64,000 bases of DNA from an uncultured Candidatus Binatia bacterium (GTDB lineage Bacteria > Desulfobacterota > Binatia > UBA9968 > CAXXLF01): the NCBI GenBank assembly GCA_965218425.1, contig OZ244621.1:288001-352000 (forward strand), read 5' to 3'. A program made the translations under genes and the position numbers. Shown piece after piece: positions 16,317-59,380 of the stretch (position 1 is the stretch's first letter; each line of letters starts with the position of its first letter). Under the pieces are notes generated by a model, which had not been told where the DNA came from, did no database searches, and saw only the letters and a program-made list of their open reading frames with translations.

Positions 16317-16784
16317 TCAGTCTCTGTCCCCCACCATGGTTCCACGGCAGTTACGGGTGCCGCAAAAGCAGGGATGGGCGGCTTTGGCCTTTTTCGTGTG
16401 GCGCTCGCCTAGTTGGAGGTTATAGTCATAGGTCAACTCTGCGCCGGGGCGAATCTTGCGGAGCGTCTCGATGAAGATATGGTCCTTCTCGTCTATGGTC
16501 TCACAGTTGGGCGTGCAGGAGTGATTGATCCAACGGGCGGAATTCCCATTCCTTGTGGCGTCGATAACAATCTTATCGTTGACTGTGAAGAGCATGGTAT
16601 GCGGGGAGTTTTCCTGTTCTTCACCGAATAGCCTATCCGCTTCCCTGTGGGAGATGCGCATGCCCTTGTACTCGATGAGGACGGTGCGCTTGGGGATGGC
16701 TCGGAGCGCAAAGACCCCTTTGCCGTGAATGCTGGATCTGCGGACCACAAAACGCCTGCCTTTTTCTTGCTTAAGACTCGGCAT
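16317..16784 (-). CDS. Bacterial SET-domain protein-lysine methyltransferase
   Basis: IHGKGVFA, RWINHSCTPNC, ELTYDY, post-SET CFCGTRNCRG; start after GGAGGAG. Confidence 0.92.
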   Translation of the reverse strand: MPSLKQEKGRRFVVRRSSIHGKGVFALRAIPKRTVLIEYKGMRISHREADRLFGEEQENSPHTMLFTVNDKIVIDATRNGNSARWINHSCTPNCETIDEKDHIFIETLRKIRPGAELTYDYNLQLGERHTKKAKAAHPCFCGTRNCRGTMVGDRD

Positions 16785-16995
16785 AATCTCCTCCCGTTGT
16801 GCTTTTTGTAAACACGGCCCTCTAAAAAATGGACGGCCTGAATCGCGATGACCTATATTAGCAAGACGAAAGCTCGGAGTCACTAAAAAATTGGTGCAAA
16901 GTTTGGCTTGTTACCGCCGGCGATCCATGTTGACAAGGCGTCACCTCGTACTGTAAAAGCATTTCATATGATTGGACTCGAACACGGAGGTGATT

Positions 16996-40221: not shown

Positions 40222-41641
40222 TGTCAATTACCCGTATTGCGCCATTTGTAATTCTAACCCTCCAAGGGCTCATTTTAGGGCTCAAAGAGGGCAACCATGG
40301 AAGGATTCATCATGGCACGACGATCCAAGCGGGAGTATTTACGATCCATCTATGACCGCTACCAGCACGCACCACGGGCGGAGAAGGGGATGATCCTGGA
40401 GCAATTCTGCAAGGTTTGCGGCTACAACCGTAAATATGCCATCTGGCTGTTAAACCGCCCTGTGCCCGAAGTAGCCGTACGCAAACGAAGTGTATCTCGC
40501 TCGCCTGCATACAGTCAGGCGATGGTAAGGATTTTGGCAAAGGTGTGGGAGGCCTCGGGGTATCTGTGCTCCCAACGTCTGAAGGCCGCCCTGGTGCACT
40601 GGCCGCCCTGGATAAGGCAACACTTCGAGCTGAGCCAACCGTTAGAGATCCAGCTATTGGCTATCAGTGCCCGTCAGATGGATCGGCGCCTGAGGGCAAC
40701 CAAGCACAGGGCGAAACGGCGAGTCTATGGCACCACCCGGCCCGGATCACTGCTAAAGCAGATGATTCCCATCAAGACCGATCATTGGGACGTGAACACT
40801 CCGGGCTATCTGGAGATTGACCTGGTGTTACACTCAGGGGCCTCAGCGGTTGGGGAGTTTATTCATAGCCTGGACTGCGTGGACATTACCACCTGCTGGG
40901 TACAGCGCAAGGCTGTCATGGGTAAGGGCAGCCTCGGTATCTTGAATGCGGTCACCGAGATCGAACACCAACTTCCTTTCCCCCTCAAGGGGATCGACTC
41001 CGACAACGGCAGCGAGTTCATCAACAACCAACTTCTTACCTTGTGTCAACAACGCCCATCTGGCCGCGTCATCCAGTTCACCCGCTCACGCCCCTACAAA
41101 AAGGACGACAACGCCCACATCGAGCAGAAAAACTGGACCCATGTCAGAAAGCTTATAGGCTGGGACCGCTACGACACGGCAAAGGCCTTAGAGGTTACCA
41201 ACCGACTCTATGATGAGCTTAGGATCTTCCACAATCTGTTCCAGCCCTCGATGAAGCTACAATGTAAAATCCGTAAAGGCTCTCGACTGATTCGCCGCTA
41301 TGACATGCCCCGTAGCCCCCTTGAGCGAGTGGTGGAGTCCCGAAAGGGAGATCCCAAAAAGCTGGCAGCCCTCAGTCACACGCTTAAGACAACCGATCCC
41401 TTTGAACTCTGTGGCCGAATCGATGAGCAACTTCAGGGGCTCTACAAGCTGGCCAGCCATTCAGACAGAGCACCGCGGGAAAGGCCGCCTCTGAAACACA
41501 CGCCGTGGAGGGAGTGGACGTTTAGCAAGAAACTGCAGGGCCAGCAACAGGAGATGAAACGACAGATGTCACAGAAGTTCGGTTAGATTTTGTCATGACG
41601 CAACGAACCCGGCTAGGGTTAGATTATTTGATGGCTTGACA
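40222..41641 (+). mobile_element. Insertion sequence with DDE/rve transposase; boundaries inferred
   Basis: TGTCAA at 40222 and TTGACA at 41641; repeated subterminal TTGCGYCAT..TCTAACC motifs at both ends; no clean target duplication. Confidence 0.6.
40297..41586 (+). CDS. DDE-type integrase/transposase (rve)
   Basis: GYNRKYAI HTH; PGYLEID, DSDNGSEF, DNAHIEQKN (D-D-E). Confidence 0.92.
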   Translation: MEGFIMARRSKREYLRSIYDRYQHAPRAEKGMILEQFCKVCGYNRKYAIWLLNRPVPEVAVRKRSVSRSPAYSQAMVRILAKVWEASGYLCSQRLKAALVHWPPWIRQHFELSQPLEIQLLAISARQMDRRLRATKHRAKRRVYGTTRPGSLLKQMIPIKTDHWDVNTPGYLEIDLVLHSGASAVGEFIHSLDCVDITTCWVQRKAVMGKGSLGILNAVTEIEHQLPFPLKGIDSDNGSEFINNQLLTLCQQRPSGRVIQFTRSRPYKKDDNAHIEQKNWTHVRKLIGWDRYDTAKALEVTNRLYDELRIFHNLFQPSMKLQCKIRKGSRLIRRYDMPRSPLERVVESRKGDPKKLAALSHTLKTTDPFELCGRIDEQLQGLYKLASHSDRAPRERPPLKHTPWREWTFSKKLQGQQQEMKRQMSQKFG

Positions 41642-41995: not shown

Positions 41996-43603
41996 ATGGC
42001 TTATCCCGACATTCACACTCACCTAAAAACACTAGAGGCCGCCGGCTATCTTCGCCGCATTCAAAGGACCATCAACAAGGATACCGAACTTCATCCGCTG
42101 GTACGTTGGCAGTATCGAGGGCTTCCCGAAGAGGAGCGAAAGGCCTGGCTCTTCGAGAACGTGACGGACTCCCGAGGACGGAGCTACAAGTTCCCTGTGG
42201 TTGTGGGGGCACTCGCCGGGAACAAGGACATTTACTTCCTTGGCATGGGCTGTAAGAGCGCTGAGGAAATGGATGAAAAATGGAAGCTCGCTCTAACGCA
42301 ACCGATTCCACCCCTTGTGGTCAACGAGGCACCTTGCCAAGAGGAGATTCATACGGGCGACGAATTGCAGCGCGACGGCCTTGGACTAGACGAATTTCCC
42401 GTGCCCATCTCCACTCCAGGTTTCGACAACGGTCCCTATACCACCTGCTCCCATTGGATCACCAAGGACCCGGAAACCGGAATTCAGAACATCGGCAATT
42501 ATCGCGGCCAGATCAAAGCCCGTACACGCATCGGGGTGTTTCCGTCTGGACTGGGCCAAGACATTTACGTTCATTGGAAAAAGGCACAGGCCAAGGGCGA
42601 ACCGTTACCCGCGGCGCTGGTGCTGGGTGCTCCCCCAGTGGTTTCATACGTTTCAGTGCAAAAGGTCTCCTACGGTGTGGACGAAATCGCAGTCGCCGGC
42701 GGGCTTGTGGGCGAGTCCATACGAATGGTGAAGTGCAAGACCGCAGACCTGCTGGTGCCCGCCGAATCGGAGATTGTCATTGAAGGACACATAAACACCG
42801 AGTGGATCGAACCGGAAGGCCCCTTCGGCGAATCCCACGGCTACATGCATCCGCGCCAGCTGAACCCGTTCATGGATGTCACGGCGGTCACCCATCGAAA
42901 GAACGCCATCTATGTGTCATGGATCAGCCAGGTCACGCCCAGCGAATCCTCAGCCATGCGAAAAATTGGCTACGATCGGCTGATGTTGGTGCATTTGCGC
43001 GACCAGTGCCGAATCCCCAGTGTCCTGCGCGTGGAGATGCACGAGCCACTGACGAATACCTACAAACTCGTGATCATCCAGATGCGCCGCCCCAACGAAG
43101 CAGAGGTGTGGCGCGCGCTGCACGCGGCCTGCTCTTTTCATCCCGGTGTAGGCAAGATCGTGGTGGCGGTGGACGAAGATATCGACCCCTCTAACGAGGC
43201 CGCCGTGTTCTGGGCCATGTGTTACCGCATGAAACCGCACCGTGATGTCCACATTGTAGGTGGCATGGAAAAAGGACACGCCCCCCCGTTTCTCTACAAG
43301 GATGAGCACCGCGGAACGGACGTGGTATCCTACCATTTGCCGGCTGATGAATCTGCAATGCTGTGCAACGCGATCCTGAAAGAACCCTTCCCGCCCATCT
43401 CGTTACCCAAGCGGGAGTACATGGAAAACGCGCGCAAGATCTGGGAGGAACTGGGCCTGCCGAAACTGAATCCCCAGATGCCCTGGTACGGCTACTCTCT
43501 AGGCCAGTGGGACGAGGAGTTGGATGAAGAGGCACGGATGGCAGTGGAGGGACGCCATTACGAGATCGGCGAAAGACTGAAGAAAGGTCGGGTGAAGGCG
43601 TAA
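41996..43603 (+). CDS. UbiD family prFMN-dependent (de)carboxylase
   Basis: KDPETG.QN.G.YR, EIVIEG, EGPFGE, VDEDID. Confidence 0.93.
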   Translation: MAYPDIHTHLKTLEAAGYLRRIQRTINKDTELHPLVRWQYRGLPEEERKAWLFENVTDSRGRSYKFPVVVGALAGNKDIYFLGMGCKSAEEMDEKWKLALTQPIPPLVVNEAPCQEEIHTGDELQRDGLGLDEFPVPISTPGFDNGPYTTCSHWITKDPETGIQNIGNYRGQIKARTRIGVFPSGLGQDIYVHWKKAQAKGEPLPAALVLGAPPVVSYVSVQKVSYGVDEIAVAGGLVGESIRMVKCKTADLLVPAESEIVIEGHINTEWIEPEGPFGESHGYMHPRQLNPFMDVTAVTHRKNAIYVSWISQVTPSESSAMRKIGYDRLMLVHLRDQCRIPSVLRVEMHEPLTNTYKLVIIQMRRPNEAEVWRALHAACSFHPGVGKIVVAVDEDIDPSNEAAVFWAMCYRMKPHRDVHIVGGMEKGHAPPFLYKDEHRGTDVVSYHLPADESAMLCNAILKEPFPPISLPKREYMENARKIWEELGLPKLNPQMPWYGYSLGQWDEELDEEARMAVEGRHYEIGERLKKGRVKA

Positions 43604-43719: not shown

Positions 43720-44161
43720 GTGCGAGGCCCTCTTCGCCCTCGGTTCACTGCTCAACAAGGGGAGCGAGGCGTAAGGCCGGGGGCATCGAACGCGCTGATC
43801 CAGATATTCACTGGCCCATTGCCCACGGCCGCAGGCTCGCTTCACGAGTAGACTGTGGGCTCGGTGGCTTGCCGTGAGTTGGCCAAAGTCGCATTGTAGG
43901 ACCTCCTTATTTCAAAAGCGGGAACATTCAAAATTTGGATTCCGACGGCTAGGAAACAAAATACTTTTTATAAAACACACCCAGCCGTCTTTGTCCTAAT
44001 TTTCAATCAGTTAAACCGATGGCATTTTTCTTGCACTTCGCTCTGCCTTATTCCCAACCAAAAGATTTGATCATGCTTACCCAATTCTCGTCTCCCATTT
44101 CGGCGACGCTGGAAAACTGGAAGCCAGGAAGCTGCTGGAGCGGCAGGCCTTCAACCAGCGG

Positions 44162-44551
44162 TTGGAGAACCGGCTCGAATTCTTCGTTTACACGGCTTTC
44201 ATCGACCGGGACGGGAAATATCAGCTCACGATGCTGCATCATTCGGGGTTTTCACCGGTGGCCAACAGCATGGGCCCCACGTTGAAGGAGGAATCGTTCC
44301 ATCTCTTCACGGGTCAGACCGGCCTCACGCGGGTAGTCAAAGAAAAAAGAAGAAACCCCATGAGCCAAGCCGCGCATACCAACGAAATGGATGAACATCT
44401 CAAAGAGGTGGTGCAAGCCCTCAACCGTGCGGTCAATGGGGCCATACCCCACGCTAAGGATCCCGGTGTTGCTGATAAAGCCATCCAGGATTGTAAAGAA
44501 ATCCTGGACACAGTGATGGAGGGAGGAGTCTCGGAGTGGCTAGATTCCTGA
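44162..44551 (+). CDS. Hypothetical protein, start uncertain
   Basis: Open frame with a helical C-terminal part; no family motif recognised. Confidence 0.3.
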   Translation: MENRLEFFVYTAFIDRDGKYQLTMLHHSGFSPVANSMGPTLKEESFHLFTGQTGLTRVVKEKRRNPMSQAAHTNEMDEHLKEVVQALNRAVNGAIPHAKDPGVADKAIQDCKEILDTVMEGGVSEWLDS

Positions 44552-45873: not shown

Positions 45874-46502
45874 ATGGATATTGATGGACTACTGGAGATT
45901 ATAAAGAAGCGGAGGCACAACGGAAGAGTCAAAGCCGATCCGATCCCTGACGAGTCACTTAAAAAAATTATCGAGGCTGCCAGTTGGGCACCCTCTGGAA
46001 ACAACGCGCAACCCTGGGAATTCGTCGTGGTTAAAAGCCCCGAGACGAAGGCCAAGATTAGAGAGCTCACGGAACCGCCTCCGCAGGCCGGCGGACATGG
46101 CCATGGAGAGGCCCCCGTGGATCCACCCGTGGTTATCATGGTCTGTGGTGATACCCGAATCAAAGAGTCGTACCCTGAAAACGTGAACAGGACGGAGGTC
46201 TTCTACTCGAGCCTGGCGGCATGCATTCAAAACCTGCATCTCGCTGCGGCAGCTTGCGGTCTAGCCACCAACTGGGGCACGTGAGGGAGGCGGGAATGGG
46301 CCGCCTTGCAAAGGCGGTGGATCTCCCCGAAGGCATAGAGATCATCGCCATGGTACGGCTGGGCTATCCCCAGCAATCGCCGCCCCCAAAACGCCGAAGG
46401 TCTTTCCAGGAAACTGTGCACCTGGACAAATTCGACACGGCCAAGCTCCGGGATGTGAAGAAGTTCATCGAAAGCGACGGAAAGGGATGGGGAAGACTGT
46501 AG
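45874..46502 (+). pseudogene. Nitroreductase family gene with a 1-nt frameshift near 46281
   Basis: WAPSGNNAQPWEF and IQNLHLAA in the first frame; LPEGIEIIAMVRLGYP and KRRRS in the second. Confidence 0.85.
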
Positions 46503-46722: not shown

Positions 46723-47955
46723 TCAGATTTGTTCCATAACCGGAACCTGGTGCGACATGAAGACTTCTCGCCGCTCGGCTGCGGACCGGAGAATACCCAA
46801 ACAAACCTCGAGTGTGGCTTCCCCCCATCTACCGTCATGAAACATGGGACGACCATTCACCACAGCCTCGTAGAGCTCCGTGATCTCCGCCTGCCGTCCC
46901 ACCATGGCCTGCGCAAGGGGTATTTCTTTCTTTTCTTCTTCCCCGTAAATGAGAATACCGTCTTGCGACTGCCGGATATCCCCCTTTTCGCAAGTAGCGA
47001 TCAATGGCCCGAAAAACTTTTGATGCCGTCTACGATTCTGTGATGGCCCCTCATTCAACTCCCAGCCATGACCGATCTGCCCGCGATCCAGCTCCCCAGC
47101 CCCATAGCGCAATTGTTCCTTGAATGCCTCGATGGTTCTTCCTCTTTCGGAACCGCGCAGGCTGTTGTAGCTCCTTCTCGCCTTGACATTGGCATCGGAG
47201 TCTCGCGTCTGCCCACCTTCCCCGATCCACCAGTGGATTTCGGAACTATCAAAAAACCCGTAGCCGCTGTAGACCATGGTCGCTGGTACACCGTTTTCAA
47301 ACTCGATGTAGCAAGCATAGGCGCCTTCACCCGGACGGGTGGGATCCCACCTCCCTGCCATAGCTCGGACACTCCTCACCATGCCACCGCCTAAAAGGCG
47401 CAGGATGTCCACTTGATGTGGCCCCTGGTTCAAGACCACACCCCGGCTCACGGCGAGCTCATGATCCGGATAAGGTCGAACCATAAAATCGTTAAAATTC
47501 CAGGTGTGGATCATGCAGAGCTTTCCCAACTCACCGCTAGCAATGATCTCCCTCATCTTCCTTATGGGTGGGTCGAAACTCTTCGTGTGACCGCACAGCA
47601 GTTTAACCCCGTTCTCATCCGCCGCGCCGTTCATTTGTTCGCACTCTTCCAGAGAAAGAGCCATGGGTTTCTCAACGATCACATGTTTCCGATTCCTCAA
47701 GGCAATAAGCGCATGTTGCGCGTGCAGTTCGTGTGGAGTGGCGACATAAACAGCATCCACATTGGAGCTTTGACACAGCTCCTCGATACTGTCATAGGAC
47801 TCGCCTTGAAAATTCTGGCGAAACGTCTCAAGGGCATTGGTTCTGAGATCCGCTGCTGCCGTGACCTCGATGTAGGGAAGTGCGGCAATTTCAGGCAATA
47901 CCCTCGTCGCCGCCTCTCCCAGACCTGCAAATCCCAGCCTCAGTATTTTTTCCAT
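46723..47955 (-). CDS. Gfo/Idh/MocA oxidoreductase, phthalate cis-dihydrodiol dehydrogenase-like
   Basis: VYVATPH..H, VEKPMAL, NQGPHQVD, GRWG.ATLEVC. Confidence 0.85.
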   Translation of the reverse strand: MEKILRLGFAGLGEAATRVLPEIAALPYIEVTAAADLRTNALETFRQNFQGESYDSIEELCQSSNVDAVYVATPHELHAQHALIALRNRKHVIVEKPMALSLEECEQMNGAADENGVKLLCGHTKSFDPPIRKMREIIASGELGKLCMIHTWNFNDFMVRPYPDHELAVSRGVVLNQGPHQVDILRLLGGGMVRSVRAMAGRWDPTRPGEGAYACYIEFENGVPATMVYSGYGFFDSSEIHWWIGEGGQTRDSDANVKARRSYNSLRGSERGRTIEAFKEQLRYGAGELDRGQIGHGWELNEGPSQNRRRHQKFFGPLIATCEKGDIRQSQDGILIYGEEEKKEIPLAQAMVGRQAEITELYEAVVNGRPMFHDGRWGEATLEVCLGILRSAAERREVFMSHQVPVMEQI

Positions 47956-48031: not shown

Positions 48032-49159
48032 TTATCTCCTCTTCCTCTCTGCCAAGGCTGAATTAATAATTTTTACGATGGGTTTCATCTCACGACGACC
48101 TGGAACGTCTAGATCAATATATTGAACACCCTCCATTCGTCGCCTGTTTGCTCGAACAATGTCCTTCGGAATATCGACGCGTAGGGAATCCTGGGCATCC
48201 CCCCCAATGTCAACCCCTGTCTCCATGAAAGCCATCTGTCCTTCGCGCGACAGGAGCCAGTTAATAAAAACTTTTGCTGCATTGGGGTGCGCTGCCCTGT
48301 TTACCAAAGCGAGGGTGCTACCCAGTGAAACCAGCCCTGCCCCCTCTTTCATCATGCTAAACTCTTCTACCGGTAGCCCTTGGCGCTTGGCTGTTGATAT
48401 ACCCGAACAGGCAAAACAGATAGCGTATCTGCCCTGGGCCAACCAATCCGTCCCCTGGCGGAAACTGGTAAAAAGCGTTATATCCATTTCGCCAAATAGC
48501 CGTTTTATGAATTCGGGCCCAATCTTCGGATTGTGATAAAAAAACCGAAGGGCCCCGTTGCCCGGTCCGGGCCGCCTCGCATCCCGCGCCCCGATCTTCC
48601 CCCTCCATTTGGGTTTTAGCAAATCCCATACGGACTTGATTTCTTTCGAATCCACAAGCTTGGTGTTGTAAGAAAGACTTCCTAACTGGGGTGCGCCAAC
48701 CACGCGAAACACATACCGACCCCGATCGTCCAGATAATGGTGTCTGCCCTGCCACCATAGAGATTGGTCAACCACCTCGGGCAACATCAGTGCAGGCTTA
48801 ATGGGATCAAACGCCTTGCCCCTCTTATGTAAAACCAAATAATTCGAGTTGAACCCTTCCATGCTTACATCGGCGAGAAACTTTCGAGCCCTCCGTTCCG
48901 CGAGAATGCGCTGCGCAACCATGCCTCCCCGTCCCTGAAAAACCACCGTTTTGATTTCAGGGAATCTCTTCCGGAACCGAGCTGCCAGTAAATGAGCATT
49001 GGTGTTGTAATTGTAAAAGTTAACCTGGCCTTCCTTTTTGGCAGCCGCTACTGTTTTTTCCCACTTCGCCTTCCAGCCAGGCTCGCCTTGCCCCGCAACC
49101 ACCGTGCCCGCCACCGGCATGAATAGAAAAGCTAAAAGCAATTGAGCCATCAAAACCAT
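48032..49159 (-). CDS. ABC extracellular solute-binding protein
   Basis: Signal peptide; AAKKEGQV; HPNAAKVFINWLLSREGQ. Confidence 0.9.
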   Translation of the reverse strand: MVLMAQLLLAFLFMPVAGTVVAGQGEPGWKAKWEKTVAAAKKEGQVNFYNYNTNAHLLAARFRKRFPEIKTVVFQGRGGMVAQRILAERRARKFLADVSMEGFNSNYLVLHKRGKAFDPIKPALMLPEVVDQSLWWQGRHHYLDDRGRYVFRVVGAPQLGSLSYNTKLVDSKEIKSVWDLLKPKWRGKIGARDARRPGPGNGALRFFYHNPKIGPEFIKRLFGEMDITLFTSFRQGTDWLAQGRYAICFACSGISTAKRQGLPVEEFSMMKEGAGLVSLGSTLALVNRAAHPNAAKVFINWLLSREGQMAFMETGVDIGGDAQDSLRVDIPKDIVRANRRRMEGVQYIDLDVPGRREMKPIVKIINSALAERKRR

Positions 49160-49178: not shown

Positions 49179-50453
49179 CTATTTCTCCCTCTTTAACTGG
49201 ATGCGACCCTCTAACCCCTTGATATATTCCTTCCAAGGTTGTGAATTTGGAACCTGGTCACTACAGGCATCGATTAAAAAATAATTCGCTTTGGGGTCAC
49301 GAACCACGTTTGTCGGTTCTCGACCCTCCTGGAGATCTCTTATGGCTTTCAACAGAACCTTGCGGGCGGCCACCACCGGGATATCCTGTGAGGTCAAATG
49401 CTCCTTCGTCCTGTCCTGCACATAACCCATTCCCTCCGTTACACACAGATCCTGGACCTGGAAGTTAAGGCCTATACCGCTATAGACTTTGCCCTTCATG
49501 GATTGGTTATCCTGCATGTACCGATTGCCCCGGTGACGCTTGGGCCTGTAGTCCGGTGTCATCTCAGCACGTTGCCTCCTCGTCGCCTCCATTCCAATGG
49601 GTCCTTTCCGACTAAAGATGAACGTATACTTCCAGTGGTGCTCATCATCGATGGGCACGTGCCAATTGACCGCATAGGTTCCCTCAGCCGCGTACTGCCC
49701 TCCGAAGAAACAGGTAAAACTAGGGAGGACAAACTCCGTCATATAAAGGTGATATTTATCAGGGTCCGCGAGCCGCCGAATCTTGTAGCTCCTGACACCG
49801 TACTCTGTTAACTCGGCATCATAGGATTCCATCTCCGGAGCCGCGCCTCGGCGGTTTAGGCCGTCGTCACCCAGCGTGCCGGGCTCAGCGCGAGTCGAAT
49901 TATAATGCAAGAAGGAAAGATGGGTAAGATCAATATTTCCTTCATTGCCCTGCAAGTAATTGCAGTCACTGAAGAGCTTGATGACAAATGCCCGATCACT
50001 TGGAGCAGCGAGAAATTCATAGTTTGGAAACAAGGGCGGGTTGCCTGGACCCATGTAGGTAAAGACAGCGCCTGCGTGTTCCTCGCAGGGATAGGCAAGG
50101 TGACGAATAGAACTCTTATGTTCGCCTCCACCGGGTTCACCGGGCTGATCGAGACACCGGCCGTGAATGTCGTAGAGCCAACCGTGATAGATACACCGAA
50201 GGCCCCCATCTTCCACCCGGCCATAACTCAAGTCTGCGCCGCGGTGGGAGCAATGAATGCCAAGCAACCCCGGCTTGCCCGCATCATCACGGAACAATAC
50301 CAGATCCTCCCCCAGCAATCGTACGGGCACGGGGGCGCCCCCCAGCGGCAACTCTTCGGAAAGCGCCGCCGGTATCCAGTACCGCCGCATGAGATCTCCG
50401 CAAGGTGTCCCCGGGCTCACCTTTGTCAACAGTCTGTTTTCTTCTTCCGTCAT
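49179..50453 (-). CDS. Rieske non-heme iron oxygenase (phthalate 4,5-dioxygenase/LigX-like alpha subunit)
   Basis: CSHRG..CIYHGW Rieske ligands; EGNIDLTHLSFLH; GTP.G..MRRYW N-terminus. Confidence 0.92.
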   Translation of the reverse strand: MTEEENRLLTKVSPGTPCGDLMRRYWIPAALSEELPLGGAPVPVRLLGEDLVLFRDDAGKPGLLGIHCSHRGADLSYGRVEDGGLRCIYHGWLYDIHGRCLDQPGEPGGGEHKSSIRHLAYPCEEHAGAVFTYMGPGNPPLFPNYEFLAAPSDRAFVIKLFSDCNYLQGNEGNIDLTHLSFLHYNSTRAEPGTLGDDGLNRRGAAPEMESYDAELTEYGVRSYKIRRLADPDKYHLYMTEFVLPSFTCFFGGQYAAEGTYAVNWHVPIDDEHHWKYTFIFSRKGPIGMEATRRQRAEMTPDYRPKRHRGNRYMQDNQSMKGKVYSGIGLNFQVQDLCVTEGMGYVQDRTKEHLTSQDIPVVAARKVLLKAIRDLQEGREPTNVVRDPKANYFLIDACSDQVPNSQPWKEYIKGLEGRIQLKREK

Positions 50454-50503: not shown

Positions 50504-51700
50504 TTACCTATTTCGCCGCGCTTTGGCATCGGCCAGGGCTTTTTTGTAAATCTTGAGAACGGGCTTCATATCGATCACTTCCGGATTGAACAGCTCGATA
50601 TACTCCACACCCTCGATGCGCCGGTCCTCCGGTAAGATCCGATCCTTAGGAACATCGAGCCTGAGGGAGTTCGGGACATCATTACCGGACCGGCCATAGG
50701 AATTTTGAAAGGTGGTTTGCCCCTCCCGAGAAAGAAACCAGTTGATGAAAACCTTTGCGGCATTAGGATGGGGCGCTTTATCCAACATAACAATTGAATG
50801 TCCCTTATCAGCGAGCCCGGCTCCTTCCTTCATCAGTCCCATCGTATCCACCGGAAGCCCTTGACGTTTAGCCCTGGTGATCCCGCTGCAGAAAAAGCAT
50901 AGGTGAAACTTGCCATTGATAAGCCAGTCGGGACCCTGACGGGGGTTTCGGAACAGGGTTATATCCATCTCCGTGTAGAGACGACGGATAAATTCTGGCC
51001 CTATTTTCGGGTGATGATAGTAAAACCGCATGGCCCCACTGCCTGGGCCCGGGGTGCTGATGTCCCGAGCCTCCATTTTCCCTTTCCATTTAGGGTCCAA
51101 CAGATCCCAGGGGGATTTAATTTTTTTCGGGTTTACTAGCTTCGAGTTATACGAAAGGGACCCGTATTGAGGCTCCCCCACATAGACAAATACGTATTTG
51201 CCCTCGGGATCGGCATAGTAATGCTTTTTATGCCACCAATTGGTTCGATCGAGGACTTCGGGAAGGACCAGAACAGGTTTTACGGGAGCCAAGATTTTAG
51301 CTGGATAGAACAATGTAGCGTTGGGATTGACACCGTGCGTGATGACGTCAGCCAGATACTTTCCAGCCCTTCGCTCCGTTAGGATGCGCTGCTCGATTTG
51401 ACCTCGCCGACCTGCAACTCCAACGACTCTGATTCCAGGATAACGCTTTTGAAATACGCCTGCATCCAATACGGAAATGGTGCTCCACATATAAACGTTC
51501 ACCTGGCCCTCTTTTTTCGCGGCTTGCACCGTCTTTTCCCAATCCTGTTGCCAGCTCTGCGTTCTCCCCTGGGCCTGGGCCACACCGATTTCCACAGTCA
51601 GTTGAACCATGAGTACGCCAAGGCTCAACAACCCAAGGCAACAAATATAAGCGCCGCAGAAAAAAGAGCCTGCGATGATCTTTCTCTTCGTCATGGTCAT
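50504..51700 (-). CDS. ABC extracellular solute-binding protein (close paralog of 48032-49159)
   Basis: AAKKEGQV; KIGPEFIRRL; HPNAAKVFINWFLSREGQ; GGAGG RBS. Confidence 0.9.
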   Translation of the reverse strand: MTMTKRKIIAGSFFCGAYICCLGLLSLGVLMVQLTVEIGVAQAQGRTQSWQQDWEKTVQAAKKEGQVNVYMWSTISVLDAGVFQKRYPGIRVVGVAGRRGQIEQRILTERRAGKYLADVITHGVNPNATLFYPAKILAPVKPVLVLPEVLDRTNWWHKKHYYADPEGKYVFVYVGEPQYGSLSYNSKLVNPKKIKSPWDLLDPKWKGKMEARDISTPGPGSGAMRFYYHHPKIGPEFIRRLYTEMDITLFRNPRQGPDWLINGKFHLCFFCSGITRAKRQGLPVDTMGLMKEGAGLADKGHSIVMLDKAPHPNAAKVFINWFLSREGQTTFQNSYGRSGNDVPNSLRLDVPKDRILPEDRRIEGVEYIELFNPEVIDMKPVLKIYKKALADAKARRNR

Positions 51701-51725
51701 GCCTCCTATGCGGTCATGGTTGGGA

Positions 51726-53354
51726 CTAGTCCTCTCCAACCATTTTTTTCGTGATCGGTTGCTGTCGTTGGGCCATCTTCTCGCCCACTTCCAAATACTT
51801 CCCTTCCGTCATGAGCTTTGCGGTGCGGCTGTCCTCCTCACTCCAAACGCCTAACTCGTAGCCGTGCCAGGGTTCCTTGAGCTTAGGTTGCGGCAGGTCC
51901 TCATGACGTCTCCACAGCTCCAATGCATGCTCCATGTACTGCTTTGCCGGCAGAGCAACCGGCGGGTAATCCCATTTTCGCGTCGCATTTATCAAGCTCT
52001 TCCCATATTGGTACCGCACCAACCTGGACTCCATCCGGCCGTGGCCCGTACCCGGAGGCGACCCTGATGGATCCAATCCGGGACCCCGACCGTATACCAT
52101 CTGCATATCGGCCTCGGGCCTGACCCGGTAAGTCATGGCCCACAATAATCCCTCGGGGTCACGGATGTTGATGTCCTCATCCACCACCACGATGAATTTG
52201 CTCCCCGTCAGACCCGAAGCGGCCTGGAGCACGGACCACGGGTTAACCCCTCTTCGCTTTTGCAGCCTGATAGTGCAGAAGTCGGCGGCTCCTGCGCTTT
52301 CCAGGAAATGAACATCCTCCACCGGAAATCCGGCGCCGTAACGGAGGTGGTGATAAAGCATGGCCTCATGGGCAAATCCCCAAACCGTGTTGGTGTCGCT
52401 GGGAAAGAACCCCACAGTCACAGGGGTAAAAATAGCATTGCTGCGGTGCGTTATGGCGGTTACCTGGAAGACCGGCCGGTAATTTTCCTCCATGTTGAGA
52501 TACCCGGGGTACTCTCCAAAGGGAGTGCGAGGTTCTGCTGTTTCGGTGGACATTAACCCTTCAATGACAATCTCAGCCGTGGCAGGCACCTCCAAGGGTA
52601 TGGTCTTGCAACGGACAAGCTCCAGCGGTGCGCCGGTGATTCCTCCGGCCACCGCCAGTTCGTCAAGACCATAGGGAATGCGCGCGGACCCCACGGTCAT
52701 AACCACTGGAGTCGCCCCCACCACAATGGCCAAGGGCAGCGGCTCTTTACGCTGTCGAGCCTTGGACCAGTGATGGACCATGGCGTCATGAATGGACCCA
52801 ATGGCCGCCACCATCCGATCCCGTGCACGCAAAAACCCGTTATAGGTACCCACATTACGCACGCCTGTCTCCGGGTCCTTGGTAAACATGGGGGTTCCCG
52901 TTCGTAACATACCGCTAAAGCCGGGTTCTTCCACTGGTATGGGCAATTCATCCAAACCCAACTCCGTCAACTCTGCTCCGGTGTGAACCTCTTCATGAAC
53001 GGGCCCGCTGTCGACGATCACCGGCTCCAGGGGATGCATGAGCCCTTGGTGCCAGCGCTCCAGTGCCTCTTTAATGTCCTGGCACCCCAAGCCCCAAATC
53101 ACGAAATCCTTTGATGCACCGTAGACCCCCGCCGCCACCCGCATGTTGTACCGATTCCCGTTGACTCCTCTAACGTCTTCAAAAAGGAGGACCCGCCGAT
53201 CTCCATCCTCAAATCCACGCATTTGAACTCGGAATAGCGGCAGGAGATCCGTTTCCTTGCTCACGGGTTCGGTAAAACTGTACAACCGTCCCCGTCGCCT
53301 GACTTCACCCAAAAATTCCCGCAAGTCTTTGTAATCGGCCATTACTTTTCCCAT
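51726..53354 (-). CDS. UbiD family protein with atypical active-site residues
   Basis: Collinear with 41996-43603, but NVGTYN replaces N.G.YR and RTPFGE replaces EGPFGE. Confidence 0.9.
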   Translation of the reverse strand: MGKVMADYKDLREFLGEVRRRGRLYSFTEPVSKETDLLPLFRVQMRGFEDGDRRVLLFEDVRGVNGNRYNMRVAAGVYGASKDFVIWGLGCQDIKEALERWHQGLMHPLEPVIVDSGPVHEEVHTGAELTELGLDELPIPVEEPGFSGMLRTGTPMFTKDPETGVRNVGTYNGFLRARDRMVAAIGSIHDAMVHHWSKARQRKEPLPLAIVVGATPVVMTVGSARIPYGLDELAVAGGITGAPLELVRCKTIPLEVPATAEIVIEGLMSTETAEPRTPFGEYPGYLNMEENYRPVFQVTAITHRSNAIFTPVTVGFFPSDTNTVWGFAHEAMLYHHLRYGAGFPVEDVHFLESAGAADFCTIRLQKRRGVNPWSVLQAASGLTGSKFIVVVDEDINIRDPEGLLWAMTYRVRPEADMQMVYGRGPGLDPSGSPPGTGHGRMESRLVRYQYGKSLINATRKWDYPPVALPAKQYMEHALELWRRHEDLPQPKLKEPWHGYELGVWSEEDSRTAKLMTEGKYLEVGEKMAQRQQPITKKMVGED

Positions 53355-53382: not shown

Positions 53383-54819
53383 TCAGCGCAATTTAAGGAC
53401 ATCGCCCCATTTTTTACGAGCCTGCTCGCGCATCTCGGGGCTAAACAGGTTTACCGGGGGAAGTTCTTTGAGCAATTTGTAGGGCCGGCAAGCGTTAATG
53501 ATCATTCTTGAAAAGGGATAAGTTCCCTTCTTTTTTCGCTCCTCGATCACTAATGACGGATTAAATACCCAACTCGTCTTGATGGTGTTCACATTGACGC
53601 CCGTGGCAGGGTCACATCGAGTCCCAACCGCCCACAGGACATCCTTGGCATCGTCAATGTCGACATCCTCGTCCACCATGATGAACACCCGCTGGGGTAT
53701 GGGGAAGCTGGACACGGATTCGATGATCTGTTCCGTGTGTTCTTCGTTCTTCTGCCGAATCTGAATGACCGTCGCCCCTACATTCGCCAGGTCTCGAATC
53801 GCAAGGATACCACCGATGCCCGCCCGTTCGAGACGAGTCCATAGACCCGTTACCACCCTCATGGGTAGGGGCGCAGCGTAGTGGCCCTGGACAGGTTTGA
53901 AAGGCGGAGCACCCAGGAGTATGGGTTTATTGCGGTGGTAGAGTCGCTTGACGCGCACAATGGGCTCGGGCACCATGCTCCCCATGTAATAACCGGTATA
54001 TTCCCCAAAGGGACCTTCCCCGCGACTCTCCGTTTGCGGCGGCGGGACTTCCCCCTCAATGGCGATCTCGGCTGTGGCAGGAATGGGCAACCCCGTGAGC
54101 TTTCCTTGGATTACCTCCACGGGCTCACCTCTCAAAAATCCCGCATACTCGTATTCAGGGACGCCAGAGGGCGCGCCGAGGCGACCCGAGGACGTGAGAA
54201 AAAGGATGGGTTCACAACCGAAGGTCGCCGCCAAGGGGGCTGCTTGCCCTCTCTCCCAGTACTTCCGAACAATCTTGGTTCCGTCGTTGCCGATCCCTTG
54301 ATAGATGCCCGTAGTGGTGGCATCGTGAAGCTGGAGCCTGTAGGTCCCCACGTTGATCCGGCCATCGTCCGGATCCTTCAGGATGATGCAATCGCCAGTG
54401 CCTATGTACCGCCCCCCATCCCGCTCATGCCATCGGGGAACGGGAAATTGAAGCAGATCAATCTCCTTACCACTTTTTTCATTTTCCAGGAGGGGCCCCT
54501 GCTGGACGGTCACCGGAGGCAGTCCCTTGTAACCCGTATAACGCTTCTTCCAACTGCTCATGGCTTCGCCCAGGGATTGACGCGGGTCCCACTCCAGAGC
54601 CATCAGGGCGCGTCGCTGGGTGCTGCACAGGTTGCTCACCACGGTATAATCGGAAGAGTGATCTGGGATGTTCTCGAACAGGAGCGCAGGTCCCTGCTGT
54701 TCAAAGGAAAGCTCAGAGATGACCCCCATCTCTAAATCCCAATGGGCCCCCGAAACTCGTTTGAGCTCTCCCGCTTGTTCCAGCTTTGCCAAAAAATCAC
54801 GCAAGTCTCTGAAAGGCAT
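53383..54819 (-). CDS. UbiD family prFMN-dependent (de)carboxylase
   Basis: PALLFENI, DGGRYIGTG, NVGTYR, EGPFGEYTGYY, VDEDVD. Confidence 0.93.
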   Translation of the reverse strand: MPFRDLRDFLAKLEQAGELKRVSGAHWDLEMGVISELSFEQQGPALLFENIPDHSSDYTVVSNLCSTQRRALMALEWDPRQSLGEAMSSWKKRYTGYKGLPPVTVQQGPLLENEKSGKEIDLLQFPVPRWHERDGGRYIGTGDCIILKDPDDGRINVGTYRLQLHDATTTGIYQGIGNDGTKIVRKYWERGQAAPLAATFGCEPILFLTSSGRLGAPSGVPEYEYAGFLRGEPVEVIQGKLTGLPIPATAEIAIEGEVPPPQTESRGEGPFGEYTGYYMGSMVPEPIVRVKRLYHRNKPILLGAPPFKPVQGHYAAPLPMRVVTGLWTRLERAGIGGILAIRDLANVGATVIQIRQKNEEHTEQIIESVSSFPIPQRVFIMVDEDVDIDDAKDVLWAVGTRCDPATGVNVNTIKTSWVFNPSLVIEERKKKGTYPFSRMIINACRPYKLLKELPPVNLFSPEMREQARKKWGDVLKLR

Positions 54820-54841: not shown

Positions 54842-55954
54842 TTAGGCAGCCGGCATTGACGAAGCAATCCCGTCTCGTGTGAGGGCTTCCTCATACTCGC
54901 GTCGAATGGTCGGGTCCTCGTCCTTGTATTCGATCATGGTGCCCCCGTCTTTCACACTCACAAAGCCGCCATAATCTTTTCCGTGCCGAGTCAGGAACGA
55001 ATGGAACCCCACCACATGGTCCACGCTGCCCCATCGCAACGCAAGCTGTTTTGCCGGGACGGGACCCGTGTTGAAATGCTGGTGGAACCAGCCCGTTCCC
55101 GGACTAAAGACGCTCCCCGCTCGCCATGGAACTTTGACCACCTGATCGCCATGACCGTCCTCATAGGGGTGGATGCCCAATTCCCGAGGCCACATGAGCG
55201 TGTAACCATTGGAGCGTACAATGAACAGCACCGCCCCACCCCCGTGGTAGTGCGCCTTGTGGTATTTTCCCACTGGCCATTCGGCCATGTGTCCTCCCAA
55301 GGCGTTACCCGCCATTTGAAAGGAGGTAATACCAACCCCCGCGCCCTTTTGTTCCCGGCTATCAACCATGGACTCCCACACATTGGGAATGAAATTGGTC
55401 CGCCACGACACTCCCAGGCCGCCTTCGCTCGTCTCACGCTTACCCACCTTGAAGTAGCCCTCCTGACTGTCGTACCTGTCCGCAAACTTATGGTCACAAC
55501 CAAAAATAAACCCGTTGTTGTGAATCACATCCATCATCAAGGGGGCGTTGGTTAGCGCCAGGTAAAGGGCAGGTTCATTGGTTCCATTGTAGAGACGATG
55601 CCAGGTATTCAGTGGGGGAGAAAAAACCGATCCTTTTTCCCATTCGAAGTGCTGGGGGCGCTCCCCTTGCCACCAGACCTCTGTGGATCCTTTCCCCTGA
55701 AGAATAAAGATTAACTCCTCGTAGAAGTGCTTCTCGGGCTCCAAGACTCCCCCGGGCGGGATCTCAGCCACATAAAGGCCGGTCTTTCCTTCCATCCCCT
55801 GCAAATGAATAAATGTTCCCTTGCCCCCCAGACGCTTCCAAGGCTCGCGAGGAAGAGCGGCAACGTCTTCCACCCCATGACCCTCAATAACCGGTACGCC
55901 TTCCTCACGCATCCAACTTTCGTAAGTCGTTAGTCTCCGCCCTTGCGCTTCCAT
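54842..55954 (-). CDS. Bicupin protein (gentisate 1,2-dioxygenase-like fold)
   Basis: EKHFYEE..WH and YHKAHYH..WFHQHFN. Confidence 0.8.
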   Translation of the reverse strand: MEAQGRRLTTYESWMREEGVPVIEGHGVEDVAALPREPWKRLGGKGTFIHLQGMEGKTGLYVAEIPPGGVLEPEKHFYEELIFILQGKGSTEVWWQGERPQHFEWEKGSVFSPPLNTWHRLYNGTNEPALYLALTNAPLMMDVIHNNGFIFGCDHKFADRYDSQEGYFKVGKRETSEGGLGVSWRTNFIPNVWESMVDSREQKGAGVGITSFQMAGNALGGHMAEWPVGKYHKAHYHGGGAVLFIVRSNGYTLMWPRELGIHPYEDGHGDQVVKVPWRAGSVFSPGTGWFHQHFNTGPVPAKQLALRWGSVDHVVGFHSFLTRHGKDYGGFVSVKDGGTMIEYKDEDPTIRREYEEALTRDGIASSMPAA

Positions 55955-56009: not shown

Positions 56010-56867
56010 CTATGAGCTGTAGAAATCCGCCATCAACTTACCCACCAGCTCGGGCTGGTCGTTCTGTACCTGGTGCCCAGCCTTGTCCACGTACTGGAAC
56101 TTGAAATTGGGCAGGAGCTTTTCCAATTGGCGACCGAGTTCCACGGGGGCAAATTTATCCTGCTCACCCCAGATAAACATGGCCGGAATGGTCAACTTCG
56201 GGAGCGTATGGGTCATATCGTACTTGAGACGCATATTAGGATCCTGGGTTAACTTCTGCATTCCTTCCTGAAACATCCGGCGGGATTCTGCCGCCCCCGC
56301 ACGATTGGCCGCGTCGTTTCGTAGCTTCACCAGCTCGTCGGTGACCTTTGATTTATCGTATACCAAGACTTCCAACATGCGCCGCATGGACTCCTGGCTT
56401 CCATCATAGGCTCGCAACGCCCGCATCCCCTCCGTTTCGGCGTGTTTGAGACCCATGGCCGTAGAAATGGTGCCACTGGCAACGAGCAGCAACTTCTTTA
56501 CCCGGTCAGGATGCTGCAACGCGTATTTAGCTGCCACCCAGGCCCCTTGGGAATTGCCGGACAGGCAGATCCGATCGAGGCAGAGGGTATCCATGAAAGC
56601 TTCCAGTTGATCCACCCGAGACTGAACGCCTTCCGTGCAAGGATAATAGGGATCTGTATTTCCGTAGCCTCCGACACTATCCACCGCATACACACGAAAC
56701 TTCTTACTCAGTTCCCGCATGACCGGGGCAAAACCTGCTTCTCCAGAAGATCCAGCTCCTCCTCCATGGCACAACACCACCGGCGGCCCACTCTCCCCAG
56801 CCTCCGAATAGTGCGTCTTGATCCTCCTAGCCATCACATAACTAGAACGTAACGACGAATCAGCCAT
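56010..56867 (-). CDS. Alpha/beta hydrolase (MhpC/BphD-like C-C hydrolase candidate)
   Basis: HGGGAG, GNSQG nucleophile, WGEQD, AGHQVQ; start after AAGGAGGAG. Confidence 0.85.
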   Translation of the reverse strand: MADSSLRSSYVMARRIKTHYSEAGESGPPVVLCHGGGAGSSGEAGFAPVMRELSKKFRVYAVDSVGGYGNTDPYYPCTEGVQSRVDQLEAFMDTLCLDRICLSGNSQGAWVAAKYALQHPDRVKKLLLVASGTISTAMGLKHAETEGMRALRAYDGSQESMRRMLEVLVYDKSKVTDELVKLRNDAANRAGAAESRRMFQEGMQKLTQDPNMRLKYDMTHTLPKLTIPAMFIWGEQDKFAPVELGRQLEKLLPNFKFQYVDKAGHQVQNDQPELVGKLMADFYSS

Positions 56868-56934
56868 ACAACACTCCTCCTTATAATAAATACAGACTTG
56901 AGATAATTCCGTAATGCTGTGTTCTGGAAAAATA

Positions 56935-57816
56935 TTACCAAAACCGCCTTTTATACGAATCGATGAGAACCTCATCCGGCTGGCGGGAAAGAAATTCAAT
57001 CAACACTCTGTTAAATTCCTCCGGCTGCTCGAATTGCGGCCAGTGGGCAGCTTTGTCCAGCAATACAAAACGCGATCCCGGCACGGTTTGATGGACCTTC
57101 TCCGCTACCTGCCAAGGACAGGTGGGATTGTGGGTGGTCCAGAAAAACAAGATGGGTGCCTTTAACCTTGGAATCTTCTCGATCAGACCGTAGGTTCGTC
57201 CTCCCCCCGACCGCGCTCCCTCCTCCTCCGGCTCCTCCTTCGGGCGGGTATAAATTTTCAGTCTCACGTCCACCAGCTCATCGGGTAACGTCTTTGGATC
57301 ATAGAACAGCCATTCCATCCTCTTGCGTATGGTTTCGAAAGTTGGGTTGGTCGAAGCTTCCCGGGTCAATTCCTGGAAGCGGTTCATGCCTGCGGTGTAC
57401 CCATGCTCTCCCGAGGGGATCCCTCCCACGATGAGACCCAACCGGTCCACCCGTTCGGGGTGCTCATGGGCCAACAGTACGGATATTTGCCCGCCCATTG
57501 ACTCTCCAACCAGATGGGCCTTTTCAACCCCGACTGCATCCATAAAGTTAATCAGGTGCTTACAAAAATCATCCAAATTGCGGCTCATTCCCCTGGGAAT
57601 GTCCGTATATCCATGGCCAAGGTAATCGATGGCTAAGACGCGAAAATGTTTTGAGAGGGGCATGACGTTGCGCACCCAGGTCTCTGCATGCCCGCCGCCC
57701 CCATGGAGCAGAATCACGGGAGGCCCCGTGCCCGCCTCAAAGCAACGGGTACGAACGCCTCCCGCCATGTAGTATTTCTCTAAAGGTACGAATGCCTCTA
57801 ACTCTTTTGAAAACAT
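56935..57816 (-). CDS. Alpha/beta hydrolase (meta-cleavage product hydrolase-like)
   Basis: LHGGGGHAE, GESMGG, WTTHNP, AAHWPQFE. Confidence 0.85.
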   Translation of the reverse strand: MFSKELEAFVPLEKYYMAGGVRTRCFEAGTGPPVILLHGGGGHAETWVRNVMPLSKHFRVLAIDYLGHGYTDIPRGMSRNLDDFCKHLINFMDAVGVEKAHLVGESMGGQISVLLAHEHPERVDRLGLIVGGIPSGEHGYTAGMNRFQELTREASTNPTFETIRKRMEWLFYDPKTLPDELVDVRLKIYTRPKEEPEEEGARSGGGRTYGLIEKIPRLKAPILFFWTTHNPTCPWQVAEKVHQTVPGSRFVLLDKAAHWPQFEQPEEFNRVLIEFLSRQPDEVLIDSYKRRFW

Positions 57817-58381: not shown

Positions 58382-59380
58382 TTAATTCAAATCCCAATAG
58401 GCAAATGCCATACCGCATGGCGAGGCATAGACCGGCACGTAGTCCACTACAGAACCATTGACACCATCGGCAACTGCCGAGGCGATGAGCCAGTTTCTCG
58501 TTTCACCCACTCCACTGCCGAGTCCGGCAGACATTCCCGTTCCCCCCAACAGCTTTTCAGCCACATCGCCCTTTGCCGACGGATAGGGCCACTCACGGCT
58601 ATCAAAGTATTCCGCCATCTTTCGTGCCTCACCGCTTCCCACATACTTCAAAATGGTCCTGTCAAATTCTTCATCCAGATAGGCTCCCGAAATCCCTGGG
58701 GTGTGCCACAACCCTCCTGAACCGATCACGGCAACCCTGATCTCCATGGGGGACTCTTCGATCACTTGCCGCACGGCCTTACCCAGGTCGTAACACCTCT
58801 TGCCGGAGGGTTGAGGGGCATAAAAGCAATTCACGAAGAAGGGCAAAATGGGGATATCGTATTTGGGCGTCAAATAATAGGGTGGATGCAAAAAGGCGTG
58901 TCCCAGGCCGCGCTCTCTATTGGGCAGATCCAGGGAAAAGGCCAGATCAAAATCCTTCTTCATCAATCCCATCATCAACTGTCTGCCAAATTCAGGGGCC
59001 CCTTTGGCCTTTACCCAGTTTTCTTCGAATGGGATGTTTTCCATTCCCATGGCGCGGCGCAGGAATCCTACGGGCTTGGTCTCCCCTTCCATTTCTTCTC
59101 CCAGATAGATCCCCAACGCAGGAAAATTGCTAAAGCTGAACTGTTCGCGCTGATCATCACCAAAGATTAGCAGCACGTCGGGCTTCACGGCCTCGATCTT
59201 CTGTTTCAAGGTGGAATAGGCTTTCATGCAACGCTCAAACTCTTGCTTGTTGGTTTCCATAGAGGGGCGCGGCACGTCCTCAGCCAGCCGCCGCCTTCGC
59301 CGCACCTCATCCCATAGCTCCGGTTGCATAAAAAGAAACGGAGAATGTGAGCAACCCAACACGCCACAAATTGTTGCCAT
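58382..59380 (-). CDS. Class III extradiol ring-cleavage dioxygenase (LigB/DesZ-like)
   Basis: SHSP, GDDQ.E.F, GHAF, VNCFY.PQP...RCY.LG, SGGLWH, GETRNW, DYVP. Confidence 0.85.
   Translation of the reverse strand: MATICGVLGCSHSPFLFMQPELWDEVRRRRRLAEDVPRPSMETNKQEFERCMKAYSTLKQKIEAVKPDVLLIFGDDQREQFSFSNFPALGIYLGEEMEGETKPVGFLRRAMGMENIPFEENWVKAKGAPEFGRQLMMGLMKKDFDLAFSLDLPNRERGLGHAFLHPPYYLTPKYDIPILPFFVNCFYAPQPSGKRCYDLGKAVRQVIEESPMEIRVAVIGSGGLWHTPGISGAYLDEEFDRTILKYVGSGEARKMAEYFDSREWPYPSAKGDVAEKLLGGTGMSAGLGSGVGETRNWLIASAVADGVNGSVVDYVPVYASPCGMAFAYWDLN

Follow-up and report, generated by a model that had tools for sequence, protein, structure and literature searches.

Can a UbiD-family enzyme work when two of the three residues of its catalytic triad have been replaced? 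This question is raised by the gene at 51726-53354 (minus strand) of the window, i.e., of the whole stretch of 64,000 nucleotides analyzed here. UbiD catalysis is taken to depend on the RXnEX4(E/D) motif, Arg173-Glu277-Glu282 in Fdc1, and maturation of the cofactor on Arg173 (PMC5818171); a 2023 review still calls the triad motif highly conserved (PMC10176493). The protein encoded here has the motifs NVGTYN172G and EPR276TPFGE281Y (residues counted from the first ATG), and the corresponding motifs of two further UbiDs of the window are canonical: GNYR and EPEGPFGE in the paralogue 41996-43603, GTYR and GEGPFGE in the product of 53383-54819 (Table 1). In the alignment to Aspergillus niger Fdc1 (6ev8), Asn167 falls on Asn168, Asn172 on Arg173, Arg276 on position 277 and Glu281 on Glu282. 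In the alignment to S. hydroxybenzoicus VdcC, Asn172 falls on Arg168, a residue equated with Fdc Arg173 in PMC8379154. The starting observation of the preliminary description, an Arg-to-Asn and a Glu-to-Arg change at the Fdc1 173 and 277 sites with Glu282 kept, stands; Asn172 and Arg276 take the places of Arg173 and Glu277 in the triad.

Table 1. Positions of the genes and codons discussed; numbers refer to the window unless a locus (L) is named.
Feature	Position	Strand	Remarks
UbiD-family gene, Arg151 clade, Asn172/Arg276 subtype	51726..53354	(-)	542 aa from first ATG, 538 from Met5
Glu142 codon GAA	52929..52931	(-)	acid acquired by the clade, probably pairs with Arg151
Arg151 codon CGA	52902..52904	(-)	clade-invariant new arginine; likely stands in for Arg173
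Asn167 codon	52854..52856	(-)	Fdc1 Asn168 position; 147/147 clade members
Asn172 codon AAC	52839..52841	(-)	Fdc1 Arg173 position
Glu232 codon	52659..52661	(-)	Fdc1 Glu233 position, metal ligand
Arg276 codon CGC	52527..52529	(-)	Fdc1 Glu277 position; varies within the clade
Glu281 codon GAG	52512..52514	(-)	Fdc1 Glu282 catalytic acid, retained
Canonical long-subfamily UbiD (R/E/E, PISTPG motif)	41996..43603	(+)	37% identical to the 51726-53354 protein; outside the gene run
Gfo/Idh/MocA dehydrogenase	46723..47955	(-)	closest to phthalate-pathway dehydrogenase 7wzd, E 4.5e-92
Second solute-binding protein	48032..49159	(-)	
Rieske oxygenase, phthalate 4,5-dioxygenase type	49179..50453	(-)	7fhr E 4.9e-62, 7fjl E 9.1e-62
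Solute-binding protein	50504..51739	(-)	overlaps the end of the 51726-53354 gene
Canonical short UbiD (R/E/E)	53383..54819	(-)	next gene upstream, separated by 28 bases; adjacency not conserved in most relatives
Cupin, frequent clade neighbour	54842..55954	(-)	
Two alpha/beta hydrolases	56010..57816	(-)	best NCBIfam models meta-cleavage hydrolases HsaD/BphD, under cut-offs
LigB-type (class III extradiol) ring-cleavage dioxygenase	58382..59380	(-)	
Archaeal PhdC-like genes	L052 7643-8122; L055 7606-8085; L077 7740-8411; L078 7608-8099		between Arg151-clade UbiD and ubiX

The reading frame is open throughout and encodes a UbiD-family protein of 542 amino acids; the closest homologues among the matches listed comprise 538, so that Met5 is possibly the real start. 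In Pfam the protein matches PF01977 with 167.1 bits (cut-off 23.3) and PF20696 with 70 bits (cut-off 24.2), and it has the three-domain UbiD fold. Its score with the NCBIfam model TIGR00148, 217.7 bits, lies below the curated cut-off of 244.85, which is also narrowly missed by the canonical long paralogue (243.6 bits). The phenylphosphate carboxylase models TIGR02723 (94 bits, cut-off 564.6) and TIGR02724 (89.4 bits, cut-off 468.95) stay below their cut-offs as well. A C-terminal extension with a conserved PWxGYxLGxW motif (residues about 490-542; window 51726-51900) lies beyond the part aligned to solved UbiDs and is common to the clade described below and its canonical sister subfamily.

Decay of the gene or an error in the sequence would be the simplest explanation of the altered triad. 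The 72 UbiD genes of the genome provide a redundancy that could permit decay, and one related copy in the same genome is indeed frameshifted and carries His172 and Lys281. The present gene has an open frame, and its orthologue in the genome G001 is 97% identical with identical codons at Asn172, Arg276 and Glu281; a dN/dS of 0.053 at a dS of 0.34 between the two indicates purifying selection. In contigs from four runs, which belong to three studies, no differing letter occurs over the parts of the gene that they cover; two of these runs are possibly the source of the assembly itself. A homologue search gave 2,448 matches, and none of the best 120, which were used here, has Arg at the 172 column, while 89 share the combination Asn172/Arg276/Glu281 (N/R/E). 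Decay and error are thus excluded. The earlier expectation that a sequencing error is unlikely was borne out, including its argument that the Glu-to-Arg change needs several base changes (the paralogue's GAA and CGC differ at all three bases), and the changes are not peculiar to a degenerating gene.

For a wider alignment, the genome's 72 full- or near-full-length UbiDs, matches in 77 genome loci, genes of relatives, metagenome loci and 138 of 150 listed representatives at 50% identity were added. Letters at all four columns were present in 501 of 515 rows, and a 90% identity filter reduced these to 407. Among these 407 UbiDs, 147 have Arg151 without Arg172, 254 have Arg172 without Arg151, six have neither and none has both; in the canonical sequences column 151 is mostly Ile or Leu (198/254). 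The 147 sequences, referred to as the Arg151 clade, have Glu142 in 142 cases, Asn167 throughout, an acidic residue at column 232 throughout (Glu 145, Asp 2), the catalytic acid at column 281 in 146 (Glu 120, Asp 26) and Lys or Arg at 386 in 143. Asn167 corresponds to Fdc1 Asn168, which we take to be a metal ligand, and Lys386 to Fdc1 Lys391, presumably a metal/phosphate ligand. The residue at column 276 is not fixed (Arg 85, Gly 23, Tyr 9, Glu 7, Leu 6, Lys 4, others 13), with Arg in 85 of the 104 members with Asn172 and in none of the 43 basal Ser-type members. Further clade-specific changes near the site are Tyr150 to an aliphatic residue, Gln/Met174 to Phe or His, and alteration of a Lys and a Gly conserved in the sister group. 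For the equivalent of His191, HMMER aligns His189 and the family alignment points to column 190, which is Asp in the present protein and not conserved in the clade (His 68, Asp 39, other 40; n = 147). Named records with clade members come from Binatia, Chloroflexota, Desulfobacterales, Acidiferrales, Thermoplasmata and Nitrososphaerales, among others. Judged by these alignments, the Arg151 clade is a widespread UbiD branch without two supposedly universal active-site residues, the second of which, Glu277, is absent from most members. A search of the open-licence literature found no description of this branch. Odd triads also occur outside the clade (N/D/E, S/G/D, K/Q/E, T/H/D, A/D/D and a further type whose catalytic loop carries a long insert), at G000:C1:3775850, 1058241, 949541 and 2722263 in the present genome (G000), at L008 6740-8248 and in P0157.

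The branch is old and monophyletic. A FastTree phylogeny of 316 rows recovered a single clade of 157 with a support of 0.997, nested within the long canonical subfamily with the PISTPG motif, to which the paralogue 41996-43603 belongs. An IQ-TREE analysis of 53 diverse rows that left out the five trait columns, run as a quick search without bootstrap, gave SH-aLRT values of 99 for the clade and 100 for the nested Asn172/Arg276 group. In the basal branches of the 53-row tree, position 172 is Ser or Thr and position 276 is Gly, Gln, His, Asp or Tyr; across the clade, basal relatives combine Ser172 with Gly, Tyr, Glu or His at 276. The order of events reconstructed from these residues comprises two steps: Arg173 and Glu277 were lost and Arg151 and Glu142 gained on the same branch, and Asn172 and Arg276 then arose on one nested branch, where Gly153 and Phe174 replace Thr153 and His174. 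Since Arg173 and Glu277 were lost before Asn172 and Arg276 appeared, the reciprocal change is not a one-step swap; the N/R covariation anticipated in the preliminary description is real, within the nested subclade. Arg276 was later lost in 19 of the 104 Asn-type members, which have L, G, C, K, N, Q or D instead and include the sister group of the present gene, with Leu276, under equally strong purifying selection (dN/dS 0.068). A paralogue with Leu276 is encoded at C1:4342089-4343786. Because the gain of Arg151 is a single evolutionary event, the mutual exclusion of Arg151 and Arg172 in 401 sequences is no statistical test.

The reading that we prefer, with a probability of roughly 0.6, is that of an active prFMN decarboxylase in which the pair Arg151-Glu142 would replace Arg173-Glu277, Glu281 would serve in acid-base catalysis and Arg276 would confer specificity for a second anionic group. 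The cofactor would be held by the retained metal and phosphate ligands Asn167, Glu232 and Lys386. Arg151 would reach from the neighbouring strand into the space vacated by the small residue at 172 and, likely paired with Glu142, bind the leaving carboxylate in place of Arg173, with Glu281 remaining the acid-base residue. Position 276, its glutamate no longer required, would have become a free specificity site; in the Asn172/Arg276 subtype the second arginine may hold a further anionic group of the substrate, basal members having His174 instead. The protein is accordingly described best as a variant that likely works in the manner of Fdc1/UbiD-type decarboxylases and not as a canonical member. 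The earlier idea of a migrating arginine is supported in so far as an arginine was relocated, most likely to position 151 and not to 276 (Arg151 in 147 of 147 clade members and in 0 of 254 Arg173-bearing UbiDs), and by sequence a different arginine and a different glutamate, Arg151 and Glu142, likely fill the canonical roles. In Fdc1, R173A shows hardly any activity and impairs cofactor maturation, E277Q retains very little activity and R173K has no detectable activity (PMC5818171); the last result means that the Arg173 site tolerates little change, which counts against the proposed mechanism. A further point against it is the lack of conservation at column 190, which the family alignment equates with the metal/phosphate ligand His191. 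For canonical sequences, a coupling analysis gave no strong partner of position 151, whose best pair ranked 114 of 22,604, and it coupled 142 to 311/314 and not to the 276 loop; Arg151-Glu142 could be a buried structural pair.

Such a structural role is part of a more literal version of the swap, in which Arg276 itself reaches the Arg173 site and acts as catalytic arginine in this subtype. Asn172 and Arg276 do originate on the same branch and Arg276 is kept by most Asn-type members, the coupling between 172 and 276 ranks 16th in the pooled alignment, where phylogeny confounds it, and in Fdc1 Glu277 touches Arg173 (PMC5818171), so that an arginine at the 277 site could reach. The 62 of 147 clade members without Arg276 nevertheless have the catalytic acid and the metal ligands, the Leu276 sister group is under purifying selection, and Arg151 was never lost in the clade, which makes catalysis by Arg276 improbable.

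A similarly improbable alternative is a different prFMN chemistry, with a carboxylate site devoid of arginine. Glu281 and the cofactor would then serve another reaction, such as isomerization, hydration or C-H exchange, or act on a substrate that is neutral or activated. The residue that binds the substrate carboxylate in Fdc1 according to PMC5818171, Arg173, is absent from all 147 members, the further columns listed above are altered, and a dihydroxyphthalate-decarboxylase-like gene in the loci L119, L141 and L005 suggests that decarboxylation may be otherwise covered. This proposal has to contend with an invariant arginine gained on the very branch on which Arg173 was lost, with an alternation of Glu and Asp at 281 that parallels the canonical family, and with neighbouring genes that fit aromatic-acid catabolism, where decarboxylation is needed.

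These neighbours lie on the same strand as the clade gene, the Rieske and dehydrogenase genes downstream and the cupin, hydrolase and LigB-type genes upstream, and their order is kept in G001. A 12.4-kb contig of G011, from another family, carries a cupin, a clade UbiD as its sole UbiD, binding proteins, a Rieske oxygenase, the dehydrogenase and LigB. In tblastn searches (E 1e-10) with queries that were mostly proteins of the window, Rieske, dehydrogenase, LigB or dihydroxyphthalate-decarboxylase-like genes were found in 18 of the 25 Asn-type loci that span 6 kb or more, in 1 of 21 Ser-type loci and in 0 of 40 loci of the canonical long subfamily; the loci are partly redundant (the UbiDs of eight are at least 85% identical) and stem from different collections. 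Within the genome itself, the dehydrogenase gene lies less than 6 kb from 4 of 5 clade genes and from 9 of 67 other UbiDs (Fisher p 0.003, for paralogues that are not independent), and six of these nine share a cluster with a clade gene. The genome has 75 Rieske and 18 dehydrogenase matches in all, a caution on the neighbourhood link. Probably, the gene product is used in oxygen-dependent breakdown of aromatic acids. Its role would be the decarboxylation in a route for aromatic di- or polycarboxylates that runs from Rieske dihydroxylation over dihydrodiol dehydrogenation and decarboxylation to ring cleavage. The occurrence of a clade gene together with a 9JP7-type decarboxylase gene in L119 and in L141 suggests that more than one carboxyl group may be removed from the substrate. 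As to the substrate class, its assignment to aromatic di- or polycarboxylates remains tentative, with somewhat less than even odds, and we are less sure of it than of the rewiring.

Several further features were noted. In L141 (948-4680), a tandem pair of N/R/E clade genes precedes genes of the binding-protein, dihydroxyphthalate-decarboxylase-like and Rieske types. In the window, a nitroreductase gene lies in the overlapping frames 45874-46284 and 46221-46502 (45874-46502, plus strand), through a frameshift or an assembly error. Two short frames at 44019-44551 (plus strand), the second without a Pfam match at 1e-6, seem to be pieces of one gene, presumably resembling a single ferritin-like ring-oxidation subunit. 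A 429-aa frame at 40297-41586 (plus strand), just before the 41996-43603 UbiD, looks by eye like an integrase-type transposase and has no Pfam match at 1e-6, and a SET-domain protein is encoded at 16317-16883 (minus strand) within a bacterial catabolic region.

The canonical UbiD gene that precedes the clade gene on the same strand at a distance of 28 bases, here and in G001, suggests another reading: the clade protein could assist a canonical UbiD, for example the 53383-54819 product, as a non-catalytic subunit, an idea already raised in the preliminary description, or as a partner that handles the cofactor. Phenylphosphate carboxylase, as named in PMC12391406, has two UbiD-type subunits, and in L114 and L130, too, the clade gene has a canonical UbiD as its direct neighbour. 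These two are, however, the only ones with such a direct neighbour among 29 metagenome loci, many of them on short contigs (it lies further off in five more), the G011 contig has the module genes and no second UbiD, the score with the phenylphosphate carboxylase alpha model is 94 bits against a cut-off of 565, and 146 of 147 members retain the catalytic acid. A subunit role is very unlikely.

An active decarboxylase without Arg173 raises the matter of its cofactor, given that within the Fdc1 triad Arg173 alone affects prFMN maturation (PMC5818171). Any lost self-maturation would be covered by a PhdC-like maturase encoded near the ubiX of the genome. This ubiX (C1:1270302-1270814; TIGR00421 237 bits, above the cut-off) is the one ubiX among two flavoprotein matches. 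It lies in an apparent prFMN supply cluster at G000:C1:1267939-1271265 (L001, L109; minus strand) with genes for a CTP-dependent riboflavin kinase, a type 2 isopentenyl-diphosphate isomerase, a 157-residue protein and the PhdC-like protein, which is encoded at C1:1267939-1268403, two genes past the isomerase, and keeps the conserved glutamate of PhdC (Glu47 equivalent). The archaeal loci L052, L055, L077 and L078 have, after the clade gene, a small split-barrel gene and then a convergent ubiX. The best PDB sequence matches of the small protein are to the prFMN maturase PhdC (9SRG, E 1e-7), which also occupies ranks 2-10 in a fold search. It is a putative maturase, with the Gln that the archaeal proteins have at the Glu47 position counting against this role. 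Three of these four archaeal loci also have a divergent canonical UbiD upstream, so the ubiX need not serve the clade gene alone, and among 36 Asn-type loci none had ubiX or a PhdC-like gene near the clade gene. Close PhdC-like sequences are reported only from Actinomycetota in PMC13040415.

Alongside the one ubiX, the genome of 4.46 Mb has 72 UbiD-family genes of full or near-full length, and 62 cupin, 82 solute-binding and 21 dihydroxyphthalate-decarboxylase-like matches were counted besides those given above. Relatives in the order have 28-71 UbiD candidates each at first look, so the expansion looks order-wide. The frameshifted clade copy lies at G000:C1:252765-254428, with the shift near residue 483; binding-protein and dehydrogenase genes beside it also appear broken, through decay of the locus or assembly errors. 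A far-reaching extension, which we regard as rather unlikely as a whole, would be that the two-step rebuilding of the triad created a two-arginine site (Arg151 and Arg276) for free aromatic di- or polycarboxylates or for new prFMN chemistry, relying on a shared supply cluster of riboflavin kinase, UbiX, isopentenyl-diphosphate isomerase and PhdC-like maturase that serves about 70 UbiD paralogues in one genome.

A large natural clade without Arg173 represents a ready test of the real job of this arginine, and the natural variety at 276 (R, G, Y, E, L, K, C) could be used to map specificity. Annotation based on motifs would class Arg151-clade genes as dead. UbiD enzymes are used in CO2 fixation on aromatics, and a branch linked to pathways of the phthalate type could broaden the substrate range.

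To our knowledge, the 4,5-dihydroxyphthalate decarboxylase of the known aerobic phthalate pathway is not a UbiD. The neighbours of the present gene match the dioxygenase (7fhr/7fjl) and dehydrogenase (7wzd) of that pathway and some clade loci also carry its decarboxylase type (9jp7), matches that show family and not specificity. In the PhdA/PhdB/PhdC system of Mycolicibacterium fortuitum for phenazine-1-carboxylate, a UbiD is backed by UbiX and a dedicated prFMN maturase (PMC13040415). Similarly, archaeal clade members adjoin a PhdC-like gene and ubiX, and the present genome has a PhdC-like gene near ubiX. The likeness to PhdC is distant (E 1e-7 and 7e-5), the archaeal proteins are without the Glu47 equivalent, and the motifs of PhdA, GTYR and EGPFGE, are canonical, unlike those of the 51726-53354 protein. 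A. niger Fdc1 (PDB 4ZA4 series) has Arg173 and Glu277 where this protein has Asn and Arg. The closest solved UbiD, with 27-29% identity, is HmfF of Pelotomaculum thermopropionicum (PDB 6H6V/6H6X), a decarboxylase whose substrate we take to be 2,5-furandicarboxylate. HmfF has His, Ile, Arg and Glu at the positions of Glu142, Arg151, Asn172 and Arg276, and compared with it the 51726-53354 protein continues past the aligned fold with a C-terminal extension of about 50 residues.
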